Counted from the first letter of the whole stretch, positions 6,258-20,950 are shown. The stretch: 63,955 bases of DNA, filler included, from Perkinsus olseni (GCA_013115125.1; 3 parts of 3 records of this genome joined end to end with filler, not necessarily neighbours in it), one strand, 5' to 3'. Notes: generated from the letters alone by a model not told the origin. Made by a program: numbers and translations.

Positions 6258-7730
6258 CTATGGGGCGGACAGGCCAATGACTGAAGGGCTTTCCGTCCAC
6301 CAATAAGCTTCTTCGAACGATTTGGGTCGGGTCTGAGCAGAAGTGATGATGAGGATCCTCCAAGAAGGTGCGATAAGTACCTCGGAAACGCCTGTTGTAT
6401 GCCATTTGCGAAGATGGCGGGAAGGGCGAGCTCCATTAAAGTCGAGCCAACCTGGATGACGCATGTGAGAGTGGATGATGCTCGGAGCAAAGCAATACAG
6501 TATCGAAAGCATTCTGAGCAGCCCATATCGGGCTCTTGAGCAGCCTGCTGATATTAGCGTCGAATCCCTGTACTCGGGCAAAGGTAGCCGTACAGGCCTG
6601 ACGCACAGCAAGGGGTGATCGGTGCGCTGAGGGATACGCGAGGCTACCAGTTGTTGAAGTCCCGGGCATACTAGATAAGTACCGTGAAAGGCGGTATAGA
6701 AATCTTGGACGAAAGTCGGAGCTGTCATGTTGACGAAAGCGTAACCGAAGTTACTGGTTGAACGGAAGTCCATGGGCAATTAGACGAAATCGAAAGATCC
6801 GACCGGCAGACGATTCTGAAGCTCCACAACGAGGCCGTCACGATCGTATCTAAAGCACGCGTCAACCTAAGATTCCACTGATGCCGCTGCTACTACTTGT
6901 AGGGGATATTCCTCAACATTAGTGTGGTTCTGTTATCGATATTGCAGCAAGCACCATCGTGACACTGGTAAGCCAGAGAAGAGAGATTGACGGTGCTTGC
7001 AGAATAGGGCGTATGATGAGAAGGCCGTGTCTCGATACGGCAATTCGGCCAGAAATCTCCGTACTGGAAAAAAGACAATTCACGTCCCATCAAGGGCAGG
7101 CAAGCACCTTGGGGGTTGGGTTCACCTCCAAGCCCACCCGGGCTTGGAGCGACTGCCGCCCTGAAGCTCGGGGTAGCTGAAACGAGGGGGCCTCGATGAC
7201 GCAAAGGAATCATAGAGCTGGGACGGTTAGCCAAAGCAAGCCTGCATAATGAGGACATTCGTAAAAAGCAACGAATCTTGAATCTGCGAAGTGCGTGAAC
7301 GCTTACCTAACCGAGCCATTCGACTCGGGAAGAGATTCGGGGACGGCCCGAGACTCGTCATTGGAAGTGTGAAGCGGCGGAACCTTGGACCGTGATGATA
7401 GTAGCTGATGAGAGCATACCACCACTGCCGACAGAAAGCACGATCTACCTCAAGCTCAGCATGATCTTCAACCAGAATTGGAGTACTTGTCCAGCTAGCA
7501 TCAGTAGCCGTCAGGTACTGCAAAGGGGGGCTCTGCAGCAGAGGCGATGATGACCATGACAGGCTCTTGACAGCGTGGTGAAGATGGCGCAAGGCCTCAT
7601 CGTCGGCAACATCAGAGTAGAGCGAGAAGGCGGCGAGGCTCTCCTCGATGGGACCATGCTGCTGTTCTTCCGAAGGAGCATCACAGAGAGCCATCGAGCG
7701 GCAGTAACGACAATTACTTCGTACTGGCAA
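6258..7730 (-). pseudogene. Mei2-like RRM (RRM_2) paralog with a premature TAA; ends approximate
   Basis: RTTLMLRNIPYK|YDRDGLV..LPVGSFDFV*LPMDFRSTSNFGYAFVN..ACTATFARVQG. The TAA at 6780-6782 replaces the conserved Tyr. Confidence 0.7.
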
Positions 7731-8760: not shown

Positions 8761-10263
8761 CTACTCGAGGCTGAGCATATTCAGCGAGTCCAATACCAAA
8801 CGATCCGTATCACATGGCTGCCAGTCGGGGCTTTGGAGCATATTAGTGTGATGGTCTCCTTGCTCTTCCTCGACCAGCCTCGCCGATGTCCCAGTCATAG
8901 TCGACATACCGTTGTACTGCCCACCATTGGCTCCGAAAAGCAGGGTAGGAGCAGATACAAAACTGCTATTGTCTTCAAGAGGCATCGTGTCCCACAGCAA
9001 GGACTCCAACCCAGGCCCGCTCGGAACGCTCGATATAGTGGGAACCCAGGTGTCATTGGTCCCTCCACTGGATGGTGACACCTGTGGCGCTGGTCCAGCG
9101 GCCATCGGCGGCAGCTGGGAATCCTCGGCAATGGTTGTGGGTTGCTTGAGATGATGCTGTTGGCGTTTCCCTGCCCGAAGCTGCATCTGCCTTTCCCTTC
9201 TCATCTGTGCCAGTCTCTTGAATGGGATCTGCTCGTTGTGATCACCAAAAACTAACGGAAGTGCATCGTCATCATCCTCAGGAGTGCAGTCCAGAATAGG
9301 AGAGTTTATCAGCCGATTGACGTTAGCTTGAAGCCCCTGTACCCGAGCGTAGACCACCTCACAAACTTTACTACTCTTCACTCCGGGCAGTCTAGAATTC
9401 TTGAAGGCGTTGAAGAACATCCGAGTGTACTTCGGGTCAGTGACGTTGACAAAGGCGTAACCGAAATTACACCGCGAGCGGAAGTCAATTGGCATATAGA
9501 CGAAGTCAAAAGATCCCACTGGCATGCGGGCCATAACCTCGTTAACCAAAAGCTGCCGAGAATACTTGTTGGGGATGTTCTTCAGCATAAGAGTCGTCCG
9601 AGGGTCCGAGGAATCCATAGTAATCGCATTAGAAACATTGGGCTGAGACCTCCTTCTTTGCCGAGCACTCGATGATGCCAGCCCGGGTTTATGACTGGCT
9701 GTGATGCCTCTCACAGGTCGACTAACGTTCACGGGTTGGTGAGGGGGCGGTACCGCAGCAGTGTAGGAGTGGTTCGCCGATGGCATAGCGTAAGAGGGAT
9801 TGGGCGGGCTCTGTCCATCTGTCGAAGGGGCCATGACGCTGATAGGTGCGAACGGCTCTGCTTCGATGTTGCTCATAGGAGGGGTGTTCATAGGGGAACT
9901 CAGCGGCGGCCGTCCACTCGCTGCTCCACTGTTACTACCGTCTGAGAACACGTCAACGACGACCTCGTAAACGACTAATTTCGTGGCGCGCGAAATCCAT
10001 GGTAGTACCTCTGCTATTGGGAGCTGTCGAGCCTGCTGGGACGTGGCTCTTGTCCGAAGCACTTTGTCTTTTTGCCACTATTTCCTCCGCCAACTTCCAT
10101 ATGTCTTCCAAGCTCTGTCCCGAGGACCGAATCTCAGGATTGGCCAGCAACATGGCTGCAGTCTGACGAGCAGAACGCGATGACGTACCACTCCAAACGG
10201 TACTCCTCCTACCTCTACGACCGGTCCATTAGGCGACTCCACTGGAAGGTCGTTTACTGGCAT
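8761..10263 (-). CDS. Mei2-like RNA-binding protein (C-terminal RRM3/RRM_2 domain)
   Basis: RTTLMLKNIPNKYS...FDFVYMPIDFRSRCNFGYAFVN...VCEVVYARVQG in a large exon. Two short upstream exons start at MPVNDL (10263), with a 50-nt intron at 10212-10163. Confidence 0.9.
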
Positions 10264-10787
10264 TTTACACGAGAACAGATACACTGCGAACCGCATCCCT
10301 ACTACCATTGCCTCCCGAGTATTTCTCAGTACAGTGACTATTGTAGACCATTCGGATGAAGATAATGCTTCGAGGCTAGATAACCACTCCGAGAATAGGG
10401 GCCTTAACCACAGGTTCCATCCCACAGGTTCAAGGCGTGTGTGCTACGACCTGCCGACACCGCAATGATGTAATTAGCGTGCGCCCGATCGATCGATACT
10501 CCAGCGCAAGATCCACGTCCGAAGTCCGAAAGGTAATGGTGTTCTTTGTGATGACAGTTTTCGATTTTGACGGAATCTTGAGCCAACGTCGGGCTGTGAT
10601 TGGTGAATGAGCGGTGATCCCTATGCGGACCTCATCACTGAAAGAGGAGATATCTGGCTGGGCAGGGAGGACTGCGGCCAACTGGTAGTACATGCTCGAG
10701 TCTGGCCCCCTTTCAGAATGAGTTTATCTGGAAAGTTTTCAGAGAGAATACGTAGGAAATATCAGATTCATGAAAATTAAACAAACG

Positions 10788-10861
10788 AAACTTACCAGAA
10801 AACTCTAATTGCCGTTAAAACTTACCAGAAAACTCTAATCGCCGTCAAAGCTTACCAGAAA
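10788..10861 (+). repeat. 30-bp tandem repeat, about 2.5 copies
   Basis: AAACTTACCAGAAAACTCTAATTGCCGTTA / AAACTTACCAGAAAACTCTAATCGCCGTCA / AAGCTTACCAGAAA. Confidence 0.9.
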
Positions 10862-11058
10862 TACGCAAGCGTCAAATGTAAGTTTTGCATACAACATCTG
10901 AAATTGATTTTCACGTTCGATGCGGTTCATGAACCGATCCTGAATGTCAGAATAAGTTTATCAAACGCTCCTTGGCAGTTCGAATGAGCTATTACTCGCT
11001 GGTGCCTGCTTCACTCCTAGGGGAGTCCCTCCCGTCAAGGACCTGCGCTAGGATACGC

Positions 11059-11099
11059 CTTGCAACTTGCAAGTTGCTTGCTTGCTTGCAAGTTGCAAG
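11059..11099. repeat. Perfect 15-bp inverted repeat with a (TTGC)n loop
   Basis: CTTGCAACTTGCAAG-ttgcttgcttg-CTTGCAAGTTGCAAG. Confidence 0.9.
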
Positions 11100-11591
11100 C
11101 ACCAATTTTGAATCTGGGGCGACCTTGGCAGCCTGGCCCACGCTGTGTTAGGCGATGGAGGCATGGTTTTCCGGGTGATTCAGAGCGCTCCGCGCTGTTG
11201 AGGGAAAGTCCGGCGTGTTTCTTGTAAATGTTCGAAACCGCGATGAGGTGTCATGATGGGCCCAGCGGGGGACTGCGCCAAGCGCTTTCGTCCGACCACA
11301 GGGACAAACTGAGACCAGCCACGTATAACTAAATTGTATACACTTCTAGCGGAAATCGGTCAAATTTTGGAGCAGCTTCAGTCGTCATAATTGGTCTCTT
11401 TCCTGGTGTTTCGCCGACCTCGCTGTCGCTTGGAGTCCGCGTGCGCGCGATCATTTTTAGCAAAGAGCATCCTCACGCGGCTCTCGATGGTCTGGTAGAA
11501 AAGATCGAGACGATCGAGGCGTCGTGATGGGCTTAGAGGGCTGCACATCATTTCGTTATCTTTGGGAGTTGCGCTTGAGGTGGCATGGTAG

Positions 11592-14500
11592 GTGCACGAC
11601 CTCAAGACGCCTTTCAACGGCGTGGTGGGCCTGACAGAAGCTATGAAAGTGATGGTACGAGATGAAGGCAAGAAGCGGCTCTTATCCATGATCAACCGGG
11701 CTGGAACCCGCCTTGCTGAATATGTCAGTCGTACCACACTTCGCCCAATTCTCCTCCAGCCTACACCCTCAGGTAGAACGGACGTTGGAGATTGACGAGC
11801 TTTCGCGTGGCACTATGTTCATGCAGCGTAAGGCAGCACCAGATTAAATTTCCGGATGGTATTGAACGCTTCTCAGAGCAAGACGTCGACGTAGGGCTAT
11901 CGATACTAGAGGCTGTAGAACTCATGCGCTATGCTGAAGACAAGAACGGCGTACCTGTGCGGAAGAGCACCGTCGAACTGGTAGCAGAAAGGGGGGACTC
12001 TCTTCGAGTAATGCAGCAGGCGGTTGCGTCTAGGTCCACGATTGCCCTGCGGGATGGTCGGAGGGTGATGGGCCTGTGGTCGAGGGTGATGACATGAAGA
12101 TATCCAGAATAATTTATCACATCATAGACAATGCTCTCCGCTACACCGAATCGGTAAGGCCCAGCAGTTGGTGCCCTCGGAAGAATCTTTTTCCAGGGTA
12201 CCGTAACAGTGTCGGGCAAAACTGATGCAGATTTTGTCACAGTGACGGTATCAGACACTGGCATAGGTATTGATCCAGCCCGTCATGATGAGTACGTTTC
12301 CCAGTGGAACTCAGTTGGACAGTCTCGCCCCGTGTTCAGGATTTTCATACCCTTCCGTCGACTGGCGTATCCTCACGATGGCTGCCTCGGCCTTGGCCTC
12401 TCCGTCGTCCTGGAGGTAATGCTGATGGAAGTACTGGCTCATTCTCTAACGGATCCGTCCTTATCTGCTCGGTGGAGATCACATGCTTCCTTTCCGCGCA
12501 CTCCCCCTGTCCTTCAGACCCTGCACTTGATGAGTGGATCGGTCGCTGTGCACTCCCTTGGTCGAGGTCAAGGCACTACTGTCACTGTCCGGATACCCAT
12601 AAAAATGAACTCTCCAGTGCCCCTCCAGACGTAGGGCTCGATGCCCTTCCCCGCTTCACGCGGCCACATTCACCTCAGTTTCGATCGGGGTCCCGAGGGG
12701 TTCGGCCTTTACTTGGATACGACTCAGCCGAGGCCACCACAGCGGCTACTAATGAAGCGAACGGTCGGACTGCTAGCGCACGAGCTTCGGATACCCTTCC
12801 TAGGGGTCATCGGCTGCAGCGACTATCTGGTCGGTAGCCGTGCCATCTTGTGGTGATTGCAGCCAATGATGTTGCTGCAGGTGCGGACGGAGGAGAAGAA
12901 GCCTTTACAGAAGCAGCTCGGCATGATCAACCGCTGCGGAGTTCGGTGAGTGAGAAAGACCGTGGCGCACGTTCTTATAGCGTTTTCCTTGTCAGGTTAG
13001 TGGACGTCATAGACGTGGTCAGAGACGCCGCCCTAATGCTAGAGCTGCCTGCCGGACTAGTGGTGAAATCGGTACGTTTCTTAGTCTTCTGGGAACCCTC
13101 ACCCGTGATCTGTCACTGCGACCTCTGCTGTGAATATAGACTCAACTTCATACTAGAATAGTCGATCATCAGGTGTCCCTTAAGGGTCTCCCATCTCGCA
13201 TGTGCTGCTCAGGTGCAGATCCCCATGCTGGTAGAGAACATCCACAAGCAACTGGATGTTGCCAAGGTAGAGCCCCATCGCACTTAGTCCACAGTAGAGA
13301 GACACTGTATCGTAGGATAAGCGGAACCAGCCCATGAAGAAGAGAGAGGTTAACTTCTTCAACGAATGCCCGGCTAGTCTGCCCGACATACAGGGAGAGG
13401 AGCTGAAGCTGGCCAAGGTGAGCTTCCCGCTGTGGCTGTGTGTGACGCATGCTTCGACCTTAGATTATCGAGCATGTGGCTGAGAACGCCCTGAAGTTCA
13501 CCAACAAAGGGCATGTTAGGATAGACGCTAAGGCGACTAAGGGCATGGTGATGAGATTGCGGATGCTCTCGGGATGGGGTGGACTGCTCCTGCTCTTCTG
13601 CTAGGTGACGCTCATAGTGGAGGACACGGGGATAGGCATCCCTGACGAGGACCAGGAAAGGGTATTCCAGCCTTTTGTGAGGTACGCGGAAGGTCGAAGA
13701 GCCGTCCGCAAAATGATGGAATGATTCAGGTTGGAACCCCACAATTACTACGGTCTAGGCCTGGGCCTCACTGTGGTGTATGAGATAGTGAAGCTAGCTG
13801 GAGGCAGCATAGAGATTGAGTCAGCGAAGGATAAGGGGACTACGGTAGTCGCCCGCATGCTTGGTGGTCGGGTGTGATGGTGTTGTTAGTTCCGTATACG
13901 CCTACCAACGGAGAGTCCCAAGACGGTTTTTTTGGACCATCTGGATGCAGTCTTTGTGAAGGCCTCCAAGCGCTCAGCCGCCGATGCTACATCCGCCGAT
14001 GGCAGGCCTCGGGAGAGCTCGGCAGATCCCTTCTTGCCCATCGCTGCTGCTTCTCCCCTGCTTGCGACGACACCTGGCGAGTCTTCCCCTCAAGCGCCAC
14101 CAAGTTCGAATACTCGCAGCGTTGGCTTACTGGACGTCCCTGAACAGCATGTTGAGAGTTCCCGTGGGGATTCTACAACGGGGTTCAAGGCGGAGGTGAT
14201 GGGGTCAGATGCCTTCCTCCATCCAGTCCTCATTGTGGCGTCGGTCAGCCTCTCAGCGCCCCACCTGCTGCTGCCGAAGAGGAAGGTCAGACACAGGAAC
14301 CCTTAGGAATTCATGAAGTGGTATTATGACGCTGATGAGGATGATCATCCTACGGTTACCATGCCGTCATTCTATAGCCGCTGTGCTCAGGAGCGCTTGA
14401 AGTCAGAGCTGGGAAGGCAACAGCAGGCGAAGACTGAAACGGCGGCGGCTCTTCAGGTGGTGAGCTGCTGTGATCTCTGCTGCTGCTGTCGTGCCCGGCC

Positions 14501-16131
14501 TGTCTCGCGTGGTTCGACCTATGATGTGGTGGCCGCGAAGGGGAATGGCTGTCCATTGCAGGATTGGCAGCAACGATGCGAAGCCCTGGTGAAGGATAAC
14601 CTCCAGCTTCGACGTGAAATGGTGGAGGAGAGGGAACGCTCGGCAGGCGAAGTGAGTGGCCGCGGCATCCCCGCTTCTCACGGCAGAATTACAGATACGA
14701 GAGCTGAGCAGCGAGCTAGGATCGGTAAAAAAGGAGAGTCAGGGTAAGCTGGTATCTTCCGTGGGTATCATTTACTGCCTGTCCGCGGTTTTACGAGGCG
14801 TCCGCGTTGCTTTCGTCGGAGGTGCATTTTTCAGAACTGCAAGATGCTATAGGGCGGCAAGAGAAGAATGTGAAGCGGCTAGAGGAGGAGAGAGGTAACG
14901 GTGGGACGCGATGGCTTTGGAGGTCGCCACTCGGTTCGTGCAGCGGCGGCCGTGGCCGGGGCAGAGAAGGCGAATCGTCAGTTCGCTGCGGAGAAGAAGC
15001 TCAGGGAGAAGGATAGGGGGAAGGTGCCAAGCCCACGAGGGGTGGCAAAGGTCAGTTAATGTCGTGGATTTCTTCAGGCCTCTACCCACCCTGCTCATGC
15101 CGCGGAGATGAGCAAGCTCCAGTCCCGTTTGGAAGTAGCCAACGAGGAACTGGTTACGTGCCGGCGAGAGCTCAAGGAATCCAGGGAAGAGGTATGTCTT
15201 GAGCTTCAAGCTTCCATCGCGCGGGGCTTGCCAATGCTATAACACTGGATGAGTGAGCACTTACGTGGTTGTTAGGTTGAAACTCTGAAAGGAAGCGACC
15301 CGACTGAGGTCAACGGGCTAGTAGCGAAGCTGCAGGCCAGGCTCGATCGGGCCAACGAAACGGTGAGACACCATCTTGAGACTTCCTCTGTGTAATGACA
15401 TTACCGTTCGCGCTGCTCCAGATTGAGGAGCTCAGAGAGGAGATAGACGAGTCCGCGCGGAAGAGGGCGGCCCTTAGTCGTGAACTCAGCCGGTTACGTA
15501 ATGGGCGCAGCGAGGACGCTGTAGTGGAGCAGAAGGAGAGCGATTCTCATGTGAGTCAAGGAAGAGCGTTGCGTCCCGCCCGTTTACGCCCTGTTGTTGC
15601 AGGCCTTCCTCCATGCGGTAGAGCAGCTGAAGGACGTGGCCAGCTTCATGCAGCAGGAGATCGAACAGCATGTAATTCCGTGCGGTGCTTGGGTGTGTCT
15701 ATGGCGGCTTATGTAGGTGTCACGTCGCGGAGTTGAGACTTCCGAGGCTCTCCGGTGCTTGAGGGAGGAGAACGAGAAGCTGCGCACTGAATTGAGGATG
15801 GTCAGAGCCTCGGGAGAGGAGGTCGGCAGCATGGCCAGATTCAGCCTCTACAACTTTTCCGCCCTCAGAGCCAGCACCCGAAGGACTGCCAGGAGGGGGG
15901 AGACTTCGAGGAGCTCAAACGGCAGAATGAGTACGGAGTTGGCCGCCCTTCGGTGGAATGCATGAAGGGTCGTGGCCGCTATTTCAGGCACCTTCGAGCC
16001 GAGCTTGGTCACCGCAGCGCGAGAATCCTCAGGCTACAACAGGAGGCTCGAAGATTACGCTCACACATAGCAGAGCTCAGCCTTGGACTGCAGCAGAAGG
16101 AGGATGAGGCGGAGGATCATTTCCTCAGGTG
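11592..16131 (+). CDS. Dual histidine kinase (HisKA-HATPase_c x2) with a long coiled-coil tail; multi-exon, true start and end uncertain
   Basis: Module 1: HDLKTPFNGVVG, DNALRYT, DTGIGI, IFIPF, LGLGL. Module 2: HELRIPFLGVIG, ENALKFT, DTGIGI, VFQPF, GLGLGL. E/R/L-rich heptad exons follow from about 14380. Confidence 0.85.
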
Positions 16132-16576
16132 AAGGTCGCTGAATTCACTTAGTGTCAGTGTTGATGGCGGGGAGCCGGAGTGTTGCATGCGGATATCTTC
16201 CGTAGCGTGTTCAGTGACAGTGTGAGGGTCGTACGTCTCAGTGAAAGGCATCTTCTCGGATAAGCACGATCTTCGTGCGTCTACGGTTGTGGTTGTGCAC
16301 CTGATGCTCGGCTTGATTTCAGGTGTTTCGCTCGACGGCCATGTAGTGCATCACCGACTCTGCGACGGTGGCGATATCCTTGCGAATCTCAAGGTAGGAC
16401 CCGTAATCCGTTCCCATCTCAGTGGCTGTGGTCGGTTAATGAGTTTATTCACAGCTACGTCACGCGCCACGAAATTCGAAACTCATTTGATCTTGACACT
16501 GGCTTGAACTCATCTTCGAGAGATATTACCTTTATCTATCATCAGTGAGATAGCCATAGAACAGTCATCGCTTCCG

Positions 16577-17128
16577 TTATTCGTTGATCGAACTCTCTTT
16601 TTGATCTTTGCGTCCCAGAGCTCCTCGACTACGGCCGGGTGATGACTGATCGGCAAGGGGCCGACCCCTCGACAGCCCTGCCAGCGTTGCTCCCCTCTTC
16701 TTCTGTCTCCACCACAGCACCTACTACTGCGAGGTCCCGATGGTCCCCTATAGCAGCCTTGAACTCGGCAAGGACTGCGTAGGCCGGATCACCGTGTTTC
16801 GTTGTTGCTACTTTGCATCACAGGCCCACACAGCCACGGCCATTCAACGGCAGACCCCACCACCATCGGAGCCCTCTGTTGAAGCGCCTCTACGGCTCGG
16901 GCGAAAATGAGAGCTCCCCTTGACGAGTCAACCCCATGCTGCTGGGATAGACTTTCGTGTAAAATTGCATGGTCTCGTGTAGAAGTATCGATCATACCAG
17001 CAGTCGTTGTAATCTGATGTTCGTCCGACCCGCCGTTCTTTGTCGCGTTTGAGTGAGGAAAACTCGAGTGGCACTCGGCCGAAGTAGCTCCCTTGGACCT
17101 GATGCCCGAGCCGCCGGCCCCTGACCAT
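16577..17128 (-). CDS. Small spliced hypothetical protein
   Basis: MVRGRRLGHQ... exon plus downstream exon-like segments with GT-AG boundaries. No recognisable motif. Confidence 0.3.
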
Positions 17129-17239
17129 TACTCAGGAATTAAATTGGCAGAGCGCCTAGTCCCGCAAGACCAAGTATGCGACGCTCCGCCGTTCATCACG
17201 GCTCCGCCTGGACTTTTGTAGCTTCAGATTGACACTCTG

Positions 17240-17840
17240 ATGGCGGGCAAGAAACTTGTGCAACTACGGGATCTCAAGTGAACTCAAGTCAATGGGGGGT
17301 TGTTTAATCGCTGTCAGGTTCGAGGTGAGAGCGAAAGTGGAGCAGGACCGTGTCTTCATCGGTATGGTCTACAAAGTCGGTGCTACTCGCACCGGTACAC
17401 TGGGGAAAGGACGACTGGCCAGGACCGCACAGTGAGGAAGGCTGTGGCTTGGTGTCGGCCGATGATCGTGCAGGTACAGCGACGCTTGGGTGACAGACTT
17501 CCATCCGTACAGTCCCACGTGAGAATCGGACGCCAGTGGACAATCCATGCGTTGGTCAGATACGTGCGCCTTCGCGTCACGGATAGCGCGGCTGCGATTA
17601 AACTGGAAAGAGGGGATGTGTGGTACTTCCTCAACCCGGAGCTCACGCCCGAAGATGATAAAGTTGCCCTCGGGTCCAGACGCTTGTCGCAGTAGTTGTA
17701 TGTTCTTCGTTTTAGGTAGTGATATCTCCTGTCGCTCTCACTGTGGGTACTCGGGAAAAGATGCTGAAGATTGGCACGGCGAGTGGTGTGGGAGACTGCG
17801 AGGCAGTGGTGGGGAGCAAAAGCAAGCAGGGATGCATGTA
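17240..17840 (+). CDS. MCM10-like OB-fold and start of the zinc finger; 3' end unresolved
   Basis: Spliced: VFIGMVYKVG...YSDAWVTDF...VRLRV...ERGDVWYFLNPEL...EKMLKIGTASGVGDCEAVVGSKSKQGC, which parallels the MCM10 internal-domain pattern. Confidence 0.6.
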
Positions 17841-18639
17841 AGGCTTTGCATGCCCGGGGCAAATCCTACTTAGAAGGGGGTCAGCATCGCGTTCGCCATG
17901 ATATAGAGATGAAACGGGTTTCATGTGACGAATTTCTTCCGATAAGTCATTCAATATGATCGTATACTCATGATGTACTAGTTAGTCTAGCACCGATAAT
18001 GCAAATCGGAAACTCAAACTCAGTGTCATATCTGCTCCCAGCATCATGCATCGCGCAGCTTATCATGGATCGTGCGAGATACTGGCTGGGCTCCGTGCGA
18101 ATTGGAGAGGAGGGCCCTTTGATAGTCGTCAAAGGCCCTACAGTATAGTCGCTTTGGACGTAGCGGCCACGTTGTGGCCTGACCACGGTGGCCCACCTAG
18201 GAAGGTCTCGTCGAGTGCCTCGGAGCTCTTGCCGGGAGTGGATGCTGAAAATTCAGCAACGGGTAGCTCGCACCTCTGAATGTCCTCTTTTGGAGGAATT
18301 ACATCCATGAAACATGGAAGCACTGTTTCCGAAACAGGAGATTTACGAGGTCATCGAGGTGGTTGACACGGAGTAGCACAGCGTCGCTCCAATAGCGATG
18401 AAGGTATGTCGGACGAGGAGAGATAAACTTATAAGCTCAAGGCCGGAAACGGTTGTGGTGTGGTGAACAAGGTCAAGGCCAGCATGTCAGTCGGTCTTGC
18501 AAGTTATGGCCACGAGGGTCGGATATTGGCCATGTTGTAGGATAGTTATCGCAATCAAGGAGAGGTGCTCCGCTAGTGTTCAAATTTGACTTCATGTCTT
18601 CATGCCAGTGGATAGCTACCAATAAGTCTGTCTTAGAAC

Positions 18640-19017
18640 GTTAGTCGGGCTGAGGGTTGAGCTGAGTGTTCACAGATGATGTTCCGACTATGAAAAAGAG
18701 CCTAAGAAGGCCGAAAAAGCCAAAATTTCTGCAGAAATGGAATATTTTGCCGAATTTCTCCCAGTGAAATATTTGTAGTACTAGGCCTTCGTAACGAAAA
18801 AAGCGGAGCTCGGCACAAAGTCTCGGGTTCGAACCCCAGCCCGAGTTTTTTCCGTGTTTTTTCGGGTTCATCTACAACGATCCACGACGGTTTTGCTCGG
18901 TAGAACAGGGATGAGACTGATTTCGTATTTTTTATAGAATACACAAACCGCGAGCTTTCGAATGGTATGTGTCTCGCGAGTTGAATCGACCTAGTCGCGG
19001 AGAAATAATTTGAACGA

Positions 19018-19048
<31 letters not shown>

Positions 19049-19105
19049 CACAAAAAAGCGCAGAAGTGACCGTATATGCTCCGCTCGCTTCGCTTGCTCC
19101 GCAAT
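18640..19105 (-). mobile_element. Putative non-autonomous Helentron/HINE (DINE-1-like) element; boundaries approximate
   Basis: The minus strand begins TTGCGGAGCAAGCGAAGCGAGCGGAGCA, followed by a (GTTC)8 microsatellite (about 19012-19045). The body is non-coding and contains GGGTTCGAACCC. Confidence 0.4.
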
Positions 19106-19269
19106 TTCTCGTTTTTTCGGAAAATTTTACTTCGAATATGCCAGTCACTCTGGCTTCCAGTTCGAATATCGTCTCGAAACAGTCAATCTTGCCATAGAAT
19201 GGCTTTCTCTGTGATTTGTATAAGCAAATGACACATTCCTTGGTGCCTTACGCAGTGTAAGTTACACCA

Positions 19270-20950
19270 TGAAAATGTTCGATTATCTATCGCAGCCCTA
19301 CATACGGGTCCTTCTTGTCTCAGATATCCTGTCAACTCCGAGCTCGACCGTTCAGGGCTATGCCATATTCATTTGGAAGAGTTGAGGTCAAAGTCTATGA
19401 ACTCGCGCACTATGACGGGTAGAACCATTCCTCGTGAGAGATAACCCCCGTTCGCTCATCGTATCAGGTGGCCGCCTTCCTGTTAGTTTACTCGGTAATC
19501 GCCTTTCCACGGATATCAAAATGGTAAGTCCTGGATATCATCATCGCCTGAGTAATAATTCACCTTTGAATTCGCAGTCGGACGCGCTATTAAGACCCTC
19601 CGTCGAAGATGCTCTGAAATCTAAGAGAGTAGAAGAAGCAGCTGAGAGGCAAGGGCAGGTTAAAAGTCTGTACGCCCTCCCATTGATGATCGAGGTCCAC
19701 GGAGCCTGTCAGGTCGCTCAGACTTTCGCGACAGCGGGTAACTAGCGGGGAATGTGCCCGTTCAAACGACGGATACATCAATGCTGTTATCAATGACTTC
19801 AACCCCGAGCAGACAGCCACCAGTGTTGTGCCCTTGCTCGGTCGGTTGCTGCATATTAACCGTTCTTGCTGACGAGGTTCACTCTGCGATCGCATTAGTA
19901 TGCGTCTGATGGACTACGCTCAGGTCGGGGCCTTGGGGAAGCCTCAACTATCGACTTCGTTGTCAAAGAAAATGAGCAGCGGCAACCTCGGGACTCGGGT
20001 CCGCTCTCAAGCCGAAGCCCCACGGGGAGAGCGATACCGATCATACCCAAAATGGCCTTGACGGCTGACAACGGCGACAACCTCAAATGCTTTGACGATA
20101 TTATCCGCATCAAAAGCAAACTAAACGGTGAAAGGCAGTAACTCTGTTGGGCTTCTGCGATTGTTCGCTCCGATAGGCTCGGCAGCTAACGAGTTTGACA
20201 CAGTGGCGATGCTCAAGGAGATAAGCAAGTTGACAGATGATGGCTTGCCTCCAGACGTGAGAATATGAGGAGACTCACCGGAATCACCAAATTCGCAGGT
20301 TATCCGGAAATCGGGTATATACGCCGCTGTAGAAAGCTTGGCGGGCAGTACCTCTTCCCGAGACATTGTGCGCCCTGTGGCCGAGACGGTCGCGAAGAAA
20401 CTGGAAGTAGTTGTTGCGATCTATGCTACAGACACTTGCGATTCCAGTGATTGGTAGGAGCGATGCAAGGCGGACCTGCAGACGAAGAGAGCTCGCCGGA
20501 CTATCGACGTGGCTTCTAAAATGTAAGGTGCATGTCGAATGCATGTTTAATCGGGATTGCCATTGTTCAGTTCCTCTAGCGGGTTCAGCCTGACGGACCT
20601 GATGGACCGCTGTGTGCGTGGCAACAGGATGATGCCGCAAAGCTCATTGGCAGCAGGGAAGCGTAAACGGGAAGATGAAGCAGAGACGAGCCATGGTGGT
20701 CGCAATACGAAGAAGCAGCCAAGTGAGATCAACGCTGTCTATGTGAGCCGAGGGGGACACCGGTATGCAGGTTCCAAGGTGAAGGTAGCTAAAAAGCCTA
20801 CTGCCCCACCGATGTCAGAGGAAGAGCGTGCCCGACTACGAGAAATGAAGTCAATTCTGAAGCGATAGCTGTGCAACGAAGCTTCTTCCATGCGCATCGC
20901 ATGCGGTTTCAACCCATCCCAGAGCTTTTTGCGTGGTGTGTCGGCGATCC
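19270..20950 (+). pseudogene. Decayed coding sequence of unknown type
   Basis: Protein-like reading frames (e.g. ..ANEFDTVAMLKEISKLTDDGLPPDVRI*GDSP..SSDW*ERCK..) broken by isolated stops and frameshifts. Confidence 0.3.

Follow-up and report, generated by a model that had tools for sequence, protein, structure and literature searches.

A tandem histidine kinase gene in Perkinsus olseni

The stretch of DNA analysed here (the window; 63,955 nucleotides, filler included) comes from Perkinsus olseni, an alveolate that belongs to the perkinsozoans rather than the apicomplexans, and carries a gene for a soluble protein in which two histidine kinase (HK) modules follow one another directly and are joined through a disordered Ser/Pro/Ala linker to a long heptad tail. 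The gene had been picked out by an examination of the DNA made without knowledge of its origin (the sequence-only reading), which set it against the background of apicomplexans. That framing does not fit the host, a perkinsozoan; for Perkinsus, histidine kinases are already on record, with three reported from P. marinus in a survey (PMC6324907). The gene itself is already in databases; what is new is a recognized family to which it belongs, the internal duplication from which its modules arose, reciprocal losses of catalytic sites among its relatives and a corrected gene model.

The kinase coding sequence occupies positions 10607–16132 of the forward strand, with 30 exons and 976 codons followed by a TGA codon. 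All 29 introns have GT..AG borders; their median length is 51 nt, 28 of them measuring 43–141 nt and one 907 nt. The spliced window sequence matches residues 1–976 of the hypothetical protein FOL46_007460 [Perkinsus olseni] (P0001, 1462 aa) letter for letter and then reaches the stop. In a protein search, the largest exon (13890–14243, which encodes linker) is 100% identical to this protein and is matched at 77–84% by three allelic or isolate P. olseni models. A tblastn search of the window with P0001 recovers four exons only. Bacterial contamination or a recent transfer is ruled out by the 29 spliceosomal introns together with the RNA-supported eukaryotic neighbours.

Local intron style was fixed with one public sequencing run (X1, whose RNA nature is presumed and which contains 0.48 of the sampled words), because its contigs at neighbouring genes are spliced and have GT..AG introns of 40–67 nt. 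An unspliced 362-nt X1 contig (10850–11211, depth 4.4) lies within intron 1 of the kinase gene; it may reflect intron retention, another 5′ end of the gene or some different cause. No Rfam family matches 10200–17400 or 17800–19400.

The sequence-only reading had the feature run from 11592 to about 16131. Its end agrees with the TGA codon that closes the coding sequence, but the real start is at 10607, with exon 1 lying 907 nt upstream. The ATG of this exon is immediately preceded by an in-frame TGA (10604–10606). The codon for Trp17 (10655–10657), 11 residues N-terminal of His28, corresponds to a position that holds W or F in relatives, and exon 1 is therefore backed by homology. Alternative first exons nearer 11592 were rejected, as none carries the family leader motif. 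It had also been foreseen that unseen 5′ exons might encode a standard sensor or receiver; a 5′ exon does exist, but it encodes no domain.

Pfam finds two stretches each of HATPase_c (E 2.2e-47) and HisKA (E 1.2e-10) in P0001. Each module has a DHp part with a histidine followed by an acidic residue (H28-D29 and H292-E293) and a GHKL-fold CA part, and neither module lacks any of the N, G1, F and G2 boxes, whose peptides follow the H-boxes in other frames of the unspliced sequence. The two full HisKA+HATPase_c modules, which had been described with these histidines and boxes, were thus confirmed in one reading frame and by a motif table. Both have the hallmarks of class-I (HisKA-type) kinase cores, are classed as such and are predicted to autophosphorylate. 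A mitochondrial PDK/BCKDK-type kinase is ruled out by the HisKA H-boxes, and Pfam lists no such family.

The 351-residue tail is rich in E, R, L, A, Q and K (17% E, 12% R, 11% L and 10% A) and contains three Pro. Its mean heptad score is 7.0 compared with 2.5 in the kinase part, by a home-made measure that is not a calibrated coiled-coil predictor. Composition and heptad score agree with the Ser/Pro linker and long heptad tail reported from the sequence alone. Elsewhere the tail finds weak Pfam and Atlas look-alikes only, all of them coiled-coil proteins. In Atlas, it resembles HOOK and TACC fragments at 0.86, which is a lead only.

Table 1. Features of the kinase gene and of its downstream neighbour (window positions)
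Feature	Position	Strand	Details
Exon 1	10607-10684	+	78 nt; 26-residue leader MSGDPYADLITERGDIWLGREDCGQL
Intron 1	10685-11591	+	907 nt, much longer than the other 28
Module 1 (DHp1 + CA1)	11592-12630	+	Exons 2-8, residues 27-258; Pfam, motifs, AlphaFold2, Foldseek
His28 codon (CAC)	11595-11597	+	VHDLKTPFNG (HDLKT), module 1
N-box Asn156 codon	12130-12132	+	Module 1
Inter-module linker	12680-12742	+	21 residues, 259-279; pLDDT 50-69
Family linker motif	12683-12718	+	DRGPEGFGLYLD; DRGPEGFGxY type
Module 2 (DHp2 + CA2)	12743-13928	+	Exons 9-17 (part), residues 280-512
His292 codon (CAC)	12779-12781	+	AHELRIPFLG (HELRI), module 2
N-box Asn415 codon	13485-13487	+	Module 2
Ser/Pro/Ala-rich linker	13929-14320	+	Residues 513-625
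Heptad (coiled-coil-like) tail	14391-16129	+	Residues 626-976, exons 19-30
Stop codon TGA	16130-16132	+	End of the kinase coding sequence
Neighbouring gene	17102-20865	+	Wrongly fused as P0001 residues 977-1462; X1 contig joints, own ATG

No built-in sensor or receiver

Beyond the kinase families, Pfam returns only sub-threshold coiled-coil look-alikes for P0001; the protein has no transmembrane, PAS, GAF, REC or HPt part. PF00072 (REC) is absent from P0001, from the full-length allele P0004 and from the precomputed Pfam annotation of those family members that a profile search recovered. To cover the whole window, a REC profile was built from 80 of 94 bacterial inter-module segments, the consensus of which is a textbook receiver, and was run on all 2,501 six-frame open reading frames (ORFs) of 15 aa or more that the 64-kb window contains; its best match there has an E value of 2.3, and no receiver exon was found. 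A kinase-module profile run on the same ORFs picks out the exon ORFs of this kinase, as eleven stretches between 11592 and 13874 at E ≤ 1.3e-4 (best 1e-15), and detects no second kinase gene anywhere in the window. The highest 19-residue Kyte–Doolittle mean in the protein, 1.52, lies in the G2 box, and outside the CA domain the protein has no hydrophobic stretch. Pfam, the REC profile and hydropathy therefore confirm the absence of sensor, transmembrane and receiver domains that had been noted at the outset.

Only 26–27 residues stand N-terminal to the DHp, with an in-frame stop before the ATG, and relatives have an equally short leader at this place. Because it has no input part, the protein is not a sensor kinase, and because no receiver is fused C-terminal to the kinase, it is not a hybrid kinase. 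A receiver search with the REC-cyclase part of P0265, an environmental protein described below, returned only P0265 itself, and a search of the literature on Perkinsus response regulators turned up nothing specific.

A conserved family in Perkinsus and other protists

The core of the protein (residues 1–528) was scored against 1.84 billion representatives, and the best 150 were examined. Seven of these 150 (P0005–P0009, P0011 and P0013) align over both modules in register, and a profile search added two further family clusters (P0169 and P0170). Because the query carries two modules, nearly all other top matches are bacterial two-kinase proteins, which account for 242 of the 278 stored proteins and mostly have receivers between their modules. 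Two kinases in one chain are not rare in bacteria, and the family is marked by its sensor-less, receiver-less, coiled-coil form.

Family members come from Perkinsus marinus, from MMETSP transcript ORFs (P0006/P0155, P0007 and P0156) and from environmental ENA, JGI and NCBI proteins. The P. marinus protein XP_002768146.1 (P0005), labelled ‘two component sensor histidine kinase, putative’, is an orthologue with 83% identity over residues 1–527. It has the same leader, both histidines, the linker motif and a coiled-coil tail, but its model, which is an automatic annotation only, reaches no more than 856 aa and stops inside the tail. Between the two species, identity is 85% in module 1, 86% in the inter-module linker and 83% in module 2, and 30% in the Ser/Pro/Ala linker and 49% in the tail.

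Common to all members are a short leader, a direct tandem and a linker of the DRGPEGFGxY type, the motif being degenerate in P0011 and P0013. Behind module 2, each has 98–582 residues made up of a low-complexity stretch and a heptad tail, and heptad windows occur in the tails of all ten family lineages. The window protein shows the full set of family marks: an aromatic residue 11 positions before the first histidine (His1), the direct tandem, the linker motif and the heptad tail. Three of the lineages are represented by transcript-derived ORFs, two of which are labelled complete. As these hold module 1, linker, module 2 and tail in a single ORF, tandem and tail belong to one mRNA in the relatives.

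No family member was found among IMG/VR viral contigs. One peptide pattern, searched in one genome per prokaryote species, yielded 47 loci, none of which is a family member; they are mostly of single-module size (five are about 1.8–2.3 kb) and in their best segments mostly 23–37% identical, with two at 40% and 44%. Metagenome contigs yielded one 1.3-kb contig, without context. The architecture is found, conserved, in a small protist family. The sequence-only reading had allowed that it might already be well described; searches of the open literature, as distinct from subscription journals, turned up no paper that describes the family or reads a direct HK–HK tandem as a pseudo-dimer.

One internal duplication

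Modules 1 and 2 of the window protein are 34% identical over 234 aa (E 6e-42). Their relationship was examined in a careful IQ-TREE tree of 44 modules, including 20 bacterial ones picked by hand, and in a quick tree of 112 rows in which 41 of the 242 other proteins were sampled. In the careful tree, the ten family copies of module 1 form a clade (support 97/91), as do the ten copies of module 2 (99/94), and each window module falls inside the corresponding clade. These clades are each other's sister group (96/93) and largely mirror one another in internal branching. By the evidence of these sequences, a single internal duplication took place before the family radiated. The suspicion of an internal duplication, raised originally from features shared by the modules, is borne out by their identity and by the sister clades.

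Next out in the tree is P0012, from the dinoflagellate Gymnodinium smaydae, whose own two modules pair with each other at 100/99; since they are each other's closest relatives, its duplication may be a separate one. Two environmental HK-REC-cyclase proteins, P0239 and P0265, fall with the family in a clade of 24 modules in the quick tree (SH-aLRT 97), but on the bacterial side of the midpoint root in the careful tree, which leaves this branching order unsettled. In bacterial direct tandems, the first and second modules sit in different bacterial clades, and these tandems therefore arose independently.

Catalytic site losses and a proposed single-chain pseudo-dimer

The fate of each catalytic site was counted over ten lineages, with near-identical clusters and P. 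olseni alleles merged. His1 is kept in nine lineages and lost in P0006, where it is Ala. The second histidine (His2) is kept in four (P. olseni, P. marinus, P0006 and P0156) and lost in six, where it is replaced by Tyr (P0007), Val (P0008, P0169 and P0011), Ala (P0170) or Leu (P0013). P0006 thus has the reverse of the common pattern, with His2 kept and His1 lost. A Gly follows His2 in P0156, so that this histidine may not be functional. The N-box Asn of CA1 is likewise kept in nine of the ten lineages and lost in P0011, and the N, G1 and G2 motifs of CA2 are kept in every one. No lineage lacks both histidines.

That a CA domain should stay fully conserved beside a hairpin without its histidine is understandable if the two modules act on each other. 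In P0011, where CA1 is degenerate and His2 is missing while His1 and CA2 are intact, only the reaction from CA2 to His1 would remain productive. The spacing between module envelopes is also conserved, at 22–27 residues in nine of ten lineages (27 in the window protein), and between the two Perkinsus species the inter-module linker matches the kinase domains in conservation.

AlphaFold2 predicts residues 1–528 with a pLDDT of 81.4 and a pTM of 0.81 from a 15-row alignment, placing hairpins at 20–47/51–74 and 279–311/315–343 with an alpha/beta domain after each. The pTM value for this two-module chain implies a confidently fixed mutual arrangement in the model. In Foldseek, each module superposes on HK853, ZraS, DivL and WalK (TM by target 0.6–0.77), a comparison that is uninformative on how the modules are placed relative to each other.

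The two modules also differ around their histidines. According to one study (PMC3510030), kinase activity depends on the acidic residue at His+1, and phosphatase activity on Thr or Asn at His+4. The His+4 residue of module 1 is T or S throughout the family, and the window protein has HDLKT in module 1 and HELRI in module 2. Because module 1 keeps both the acidic His+1 and the Thr at His+4, it is likely to be the face towards a receiver; module 2 does not look so.

The losses of histidines and ATP-site residues, the conserved spacing and the pTM of 0.81 favour, but do not prove, a single-chain pseudo-dimer with module 1 as its output, a reading to which we give a probability of about one half. 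The two DHp hairpins of one chain would pack as the four-helix bundle that ordinary kinases make from two chains. ATP bound by the CA domains, above all by the always-conserved CA2, would phosphorylate His28 and, in Perkinsus, probably His292 too. The phosphoryl group would then pass to a receiver domain encoded by another gene. Oligomerization or anchoring, and not sensing, would be the role of the coiled coil, and activity would be set by partners, localization or expression, in which the tail may take part, and not by a built-in sensor.

Several points weigh against the pseudo-dimer. Its four-helix bundle is inferred, the alignment behind the AlphaFold2 model has 15 rows only, and a monomer prediction may pair exposed DHp surfaces regardless of what happens in the cell. 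The ten lineages from which the loss pattern is drawn share ancestry, and the tree suggests that the His2 losses may go back to as few as three events. No receiver or HPt partner was found for the kinase. In the window, ‘one transcript’ rests on homology and the annotated model. The intramolecular pseudo-dimer first suggested by the sequence-only reading gains indirect support from losses, spacing and pTM; the accompanying proposal of an unusual phosphorelay was not substantiated, no acceptor having been identified.

Alternative explanations

A more conventional arrangement is a parallel homodimer in which the tail pairs two chains, so that module 1 meets module 1′ and module 2 meets module 2′, giving two independent kinase dimers in series. 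This possibility, which we consider rather unlikely, draws on the fact that the two Perkinsus modules, each of them complete, are conserved to the same degree (85% and 83%), as would also suit two independent kinases, and on the long C-terminal heptad tail, a likely dimerizer that could pair chains in this way. Solved relatives are, moreover, all homodimeric kinases of the HK853, ZraS or WalK kind. However, six of the ten lineages lack His2 and yet keep every ATP-binding motif of CA2, and in a homodimer of such His-less second modules CA2 would have no substrate. In P0011, the sole intact CA domain and the sole histidine even lie in different modules. The tight inter-module spacing and the pTM of 0.81 for a single chain also speak against this arrangement.

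A further possibility, which strikes us as doubtful, is a self-contained, obligately asymmetric kinase in which a single chain makes up the entire catalytic four-helix bundle, either histidine suffices and CA2 is the fixed engine. It would have no dedicated receiver; its direct targets would be partners that the coiled coil brings together, or else an output domain, as with the cyclase joined to the tandem of P0012 without a REC. If true, this would be a route of eukaryotic histidine kinase signalling outside the two-component scheme.

DivL has Tyr at the phospho-His position. By analogy, the tandem could be a scaffold or pseudokinase that binds nucleotide and partners without relaying phosphate, anchored to a cell structure by its coiled coil. 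The lack of a receiver and a sensor would suit this role, DivL is the best solved sequence match of module 2 (4q20, E 5.8e-20), and P0007 has Tyr at the His2 position, as DivL has at its own. In the window protein, however, neither phospho-His is replaced, each is followed by its acidic residue at His+1, and no N, G1, F or G2 box is damaged; across the family, at least one histidine is kept in ten of ten lineages. We regard a pure scaffold as distinctly improbable.

That the modules, or the kinase and its tail, are separate genes fused by annotation is highly improbable: although the public model does join two genes at its 3′ end, the inter-module intron would, if retained, give a TAG at 12633 and then an in-frame ATG at 12641, and the kinase-gene joints are not among the X1 splice joints listed (part of the full set), the splice 12630/12679 restores the family linker ...LQT|FDRGPEGFG, the splice 13844/13890 restores the canonical kinase end GTT|FRIRLP, transcript-derived relatives hold all four parts in one ORF, the introns are uniformly GT..AG and, in 28 of 29 cases, of the local size, and a gap of 5 nt between two eukaryotic genes would be implausible.

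Comparison with known systems

Among eukaryotes, a parallel in architecture is offered by the dual histidine kinases of fungi and Amoebozoa, which likewise carry two kinase modules per polypeptide. Lavin et al. (2014) are said to have described these proteins as HK-REC-HK-REC, each module being followed by its own receiver. The window protein has two modules per chain, but they are adjacent (27 residues apart), without a receiver, and lead into a coiled-coil tail; because no receiver follows each module, it falls outside the dual kinases. The function of the latter (CneoTCO2 and DhkD; groups XII-A and XII-B) is called obscure in the survey mentioned above (PMC6324907).

The same survey (PMC6324907) reports three P. 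marinus histidine kinases, one of which (PmariHK1) has a C-terminal cyclase. The orthologue XP_002768146.1 is not among the three P. marinus accessions in its supplement, which brings the Perkinsus count to at least four. P0239 and P0265 are sensor-less proteins whose kinase starts at most 20 residues from the N terminus, as in the family, but these two and PmariHK1 differ in that they have only one kinase module, to which a receiver is fused, end in a cyclase as output and lack the coiled-coil tail.

The dinoflagellate transcript P0012, sister to the family in trees, has a direct HK–HK tandem with both histidines kept, but differs in an N-terminal extension of about 150 residues and in a class III (adenylate/guanylate) cyclase after the tandem. 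Pfam detects no REC in P0012 at E ≤ 0.001, and none between tandem and cyclase. In the single dinoflagellate genome that it examined, the survey reports no histidine kinase (PMC6324907).

Bacterial PAS-GAF-HK-HK proteins (P0227 and P0240 from Planctomycetes; P0026 and P0096) share the direct, receiver-less tandem but have N-terminal PAS and GAF sensors, no coiled-coil tail and an independent origin. Canonical class-I kinases (HK853, 3dge/2c2a; ZraS, 9jfj; WalK/YycG; DivL, 4q20) have the same fold and motifs as each module, with E values down to 5.8e-20. They differ in that their bundle is made from two identical chains and they carry sensor or transmembrane parts, whereas the window protein has two hairpins per chain and no sensor.

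The 3′ end of the public model and flanking genes

The public model FOL46_007460 does not stop at the TGA that follows codon 976 but splices from a GT at 16129 over 1189 nt to an acceptor before 17318. A 1988-nt X1 contig joins 17277/17318 and 17173/17228, upstream of the acceptor shared with the public model, and these upstream exons of the downstream gene contain an in-frame ATG at 17102 preceded by a stop codon. X1 contig depth is 32.6 over the downstream gene, compared with 3–7 over the kinase gene and 0.48 in between. Residues 977–1462 of P0001 match no other family member, and beyond ‘...DH[FS]LR’ the three remaining P. olseni models run on in two additional ways that also disagree with each other. 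From the contig joints, the separate ATG, the step in depth, the unmatched residues and the discordant models, we take the TGA to be the true end of the kinase. The 3′ part of the public model is thus a chimera, and the downstream gene is not part of the kinase.

The product of the downstream gene has no Pfam family and no usable Atlas look-alike. The gene contains an RNA-supported intron of 1486 nt (17837/19324). Within this intron, X1 contigs over the stretch 18282–19349 reach a depth of 65–200, show many variant positions (18844–18947) and have loose ends; the stretch also contains a (GAAC)n run near 19013–19045 and is probably a transcribed dispersed repeat.

Upstream of the kinase gene, a divergent gene on the reverse strand (8764–10278) encodes a Mei2-type RNA-binding protein (Pfam RRM_2, E 2e-27), with an X1 contig depth of about 700–940 and RNA-supported introns at 9941/10009 and 10162/10213. 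About 300 nt separate the 5′ end of this gene from kinase exon 1, so that a bidirectional promoter region may serve both. Another reverse-strand gene (6332–7449) has seven RNA-supported introns of 44–65 nt within about 1.1 kb and exemplifies the very short introns of the P. olseni genome.

Implications

Histidine kinases are thought to act as homodimers with asymmetric halves. The origin of this asymmetry, and the question of phosphorylation in cis versus in trans, are still studied with engineered heterodimers. If the single-chain pseudo-dimer is correct, a natural chain holding both halves would offer a ready-made system in which to test asymmetry, with relatives that have inactivated parts of either half.

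A fourth Perkinsus kinase with a new architecture, belonging to a family that is also present in other marine protists, changes the view of two-component signalling in alveolates. Histidine kinases are not known from animals. A conserved histidine kinase in a notifiable shellfish parasite is therefore of practical interest as a parasite-specific enzyme.

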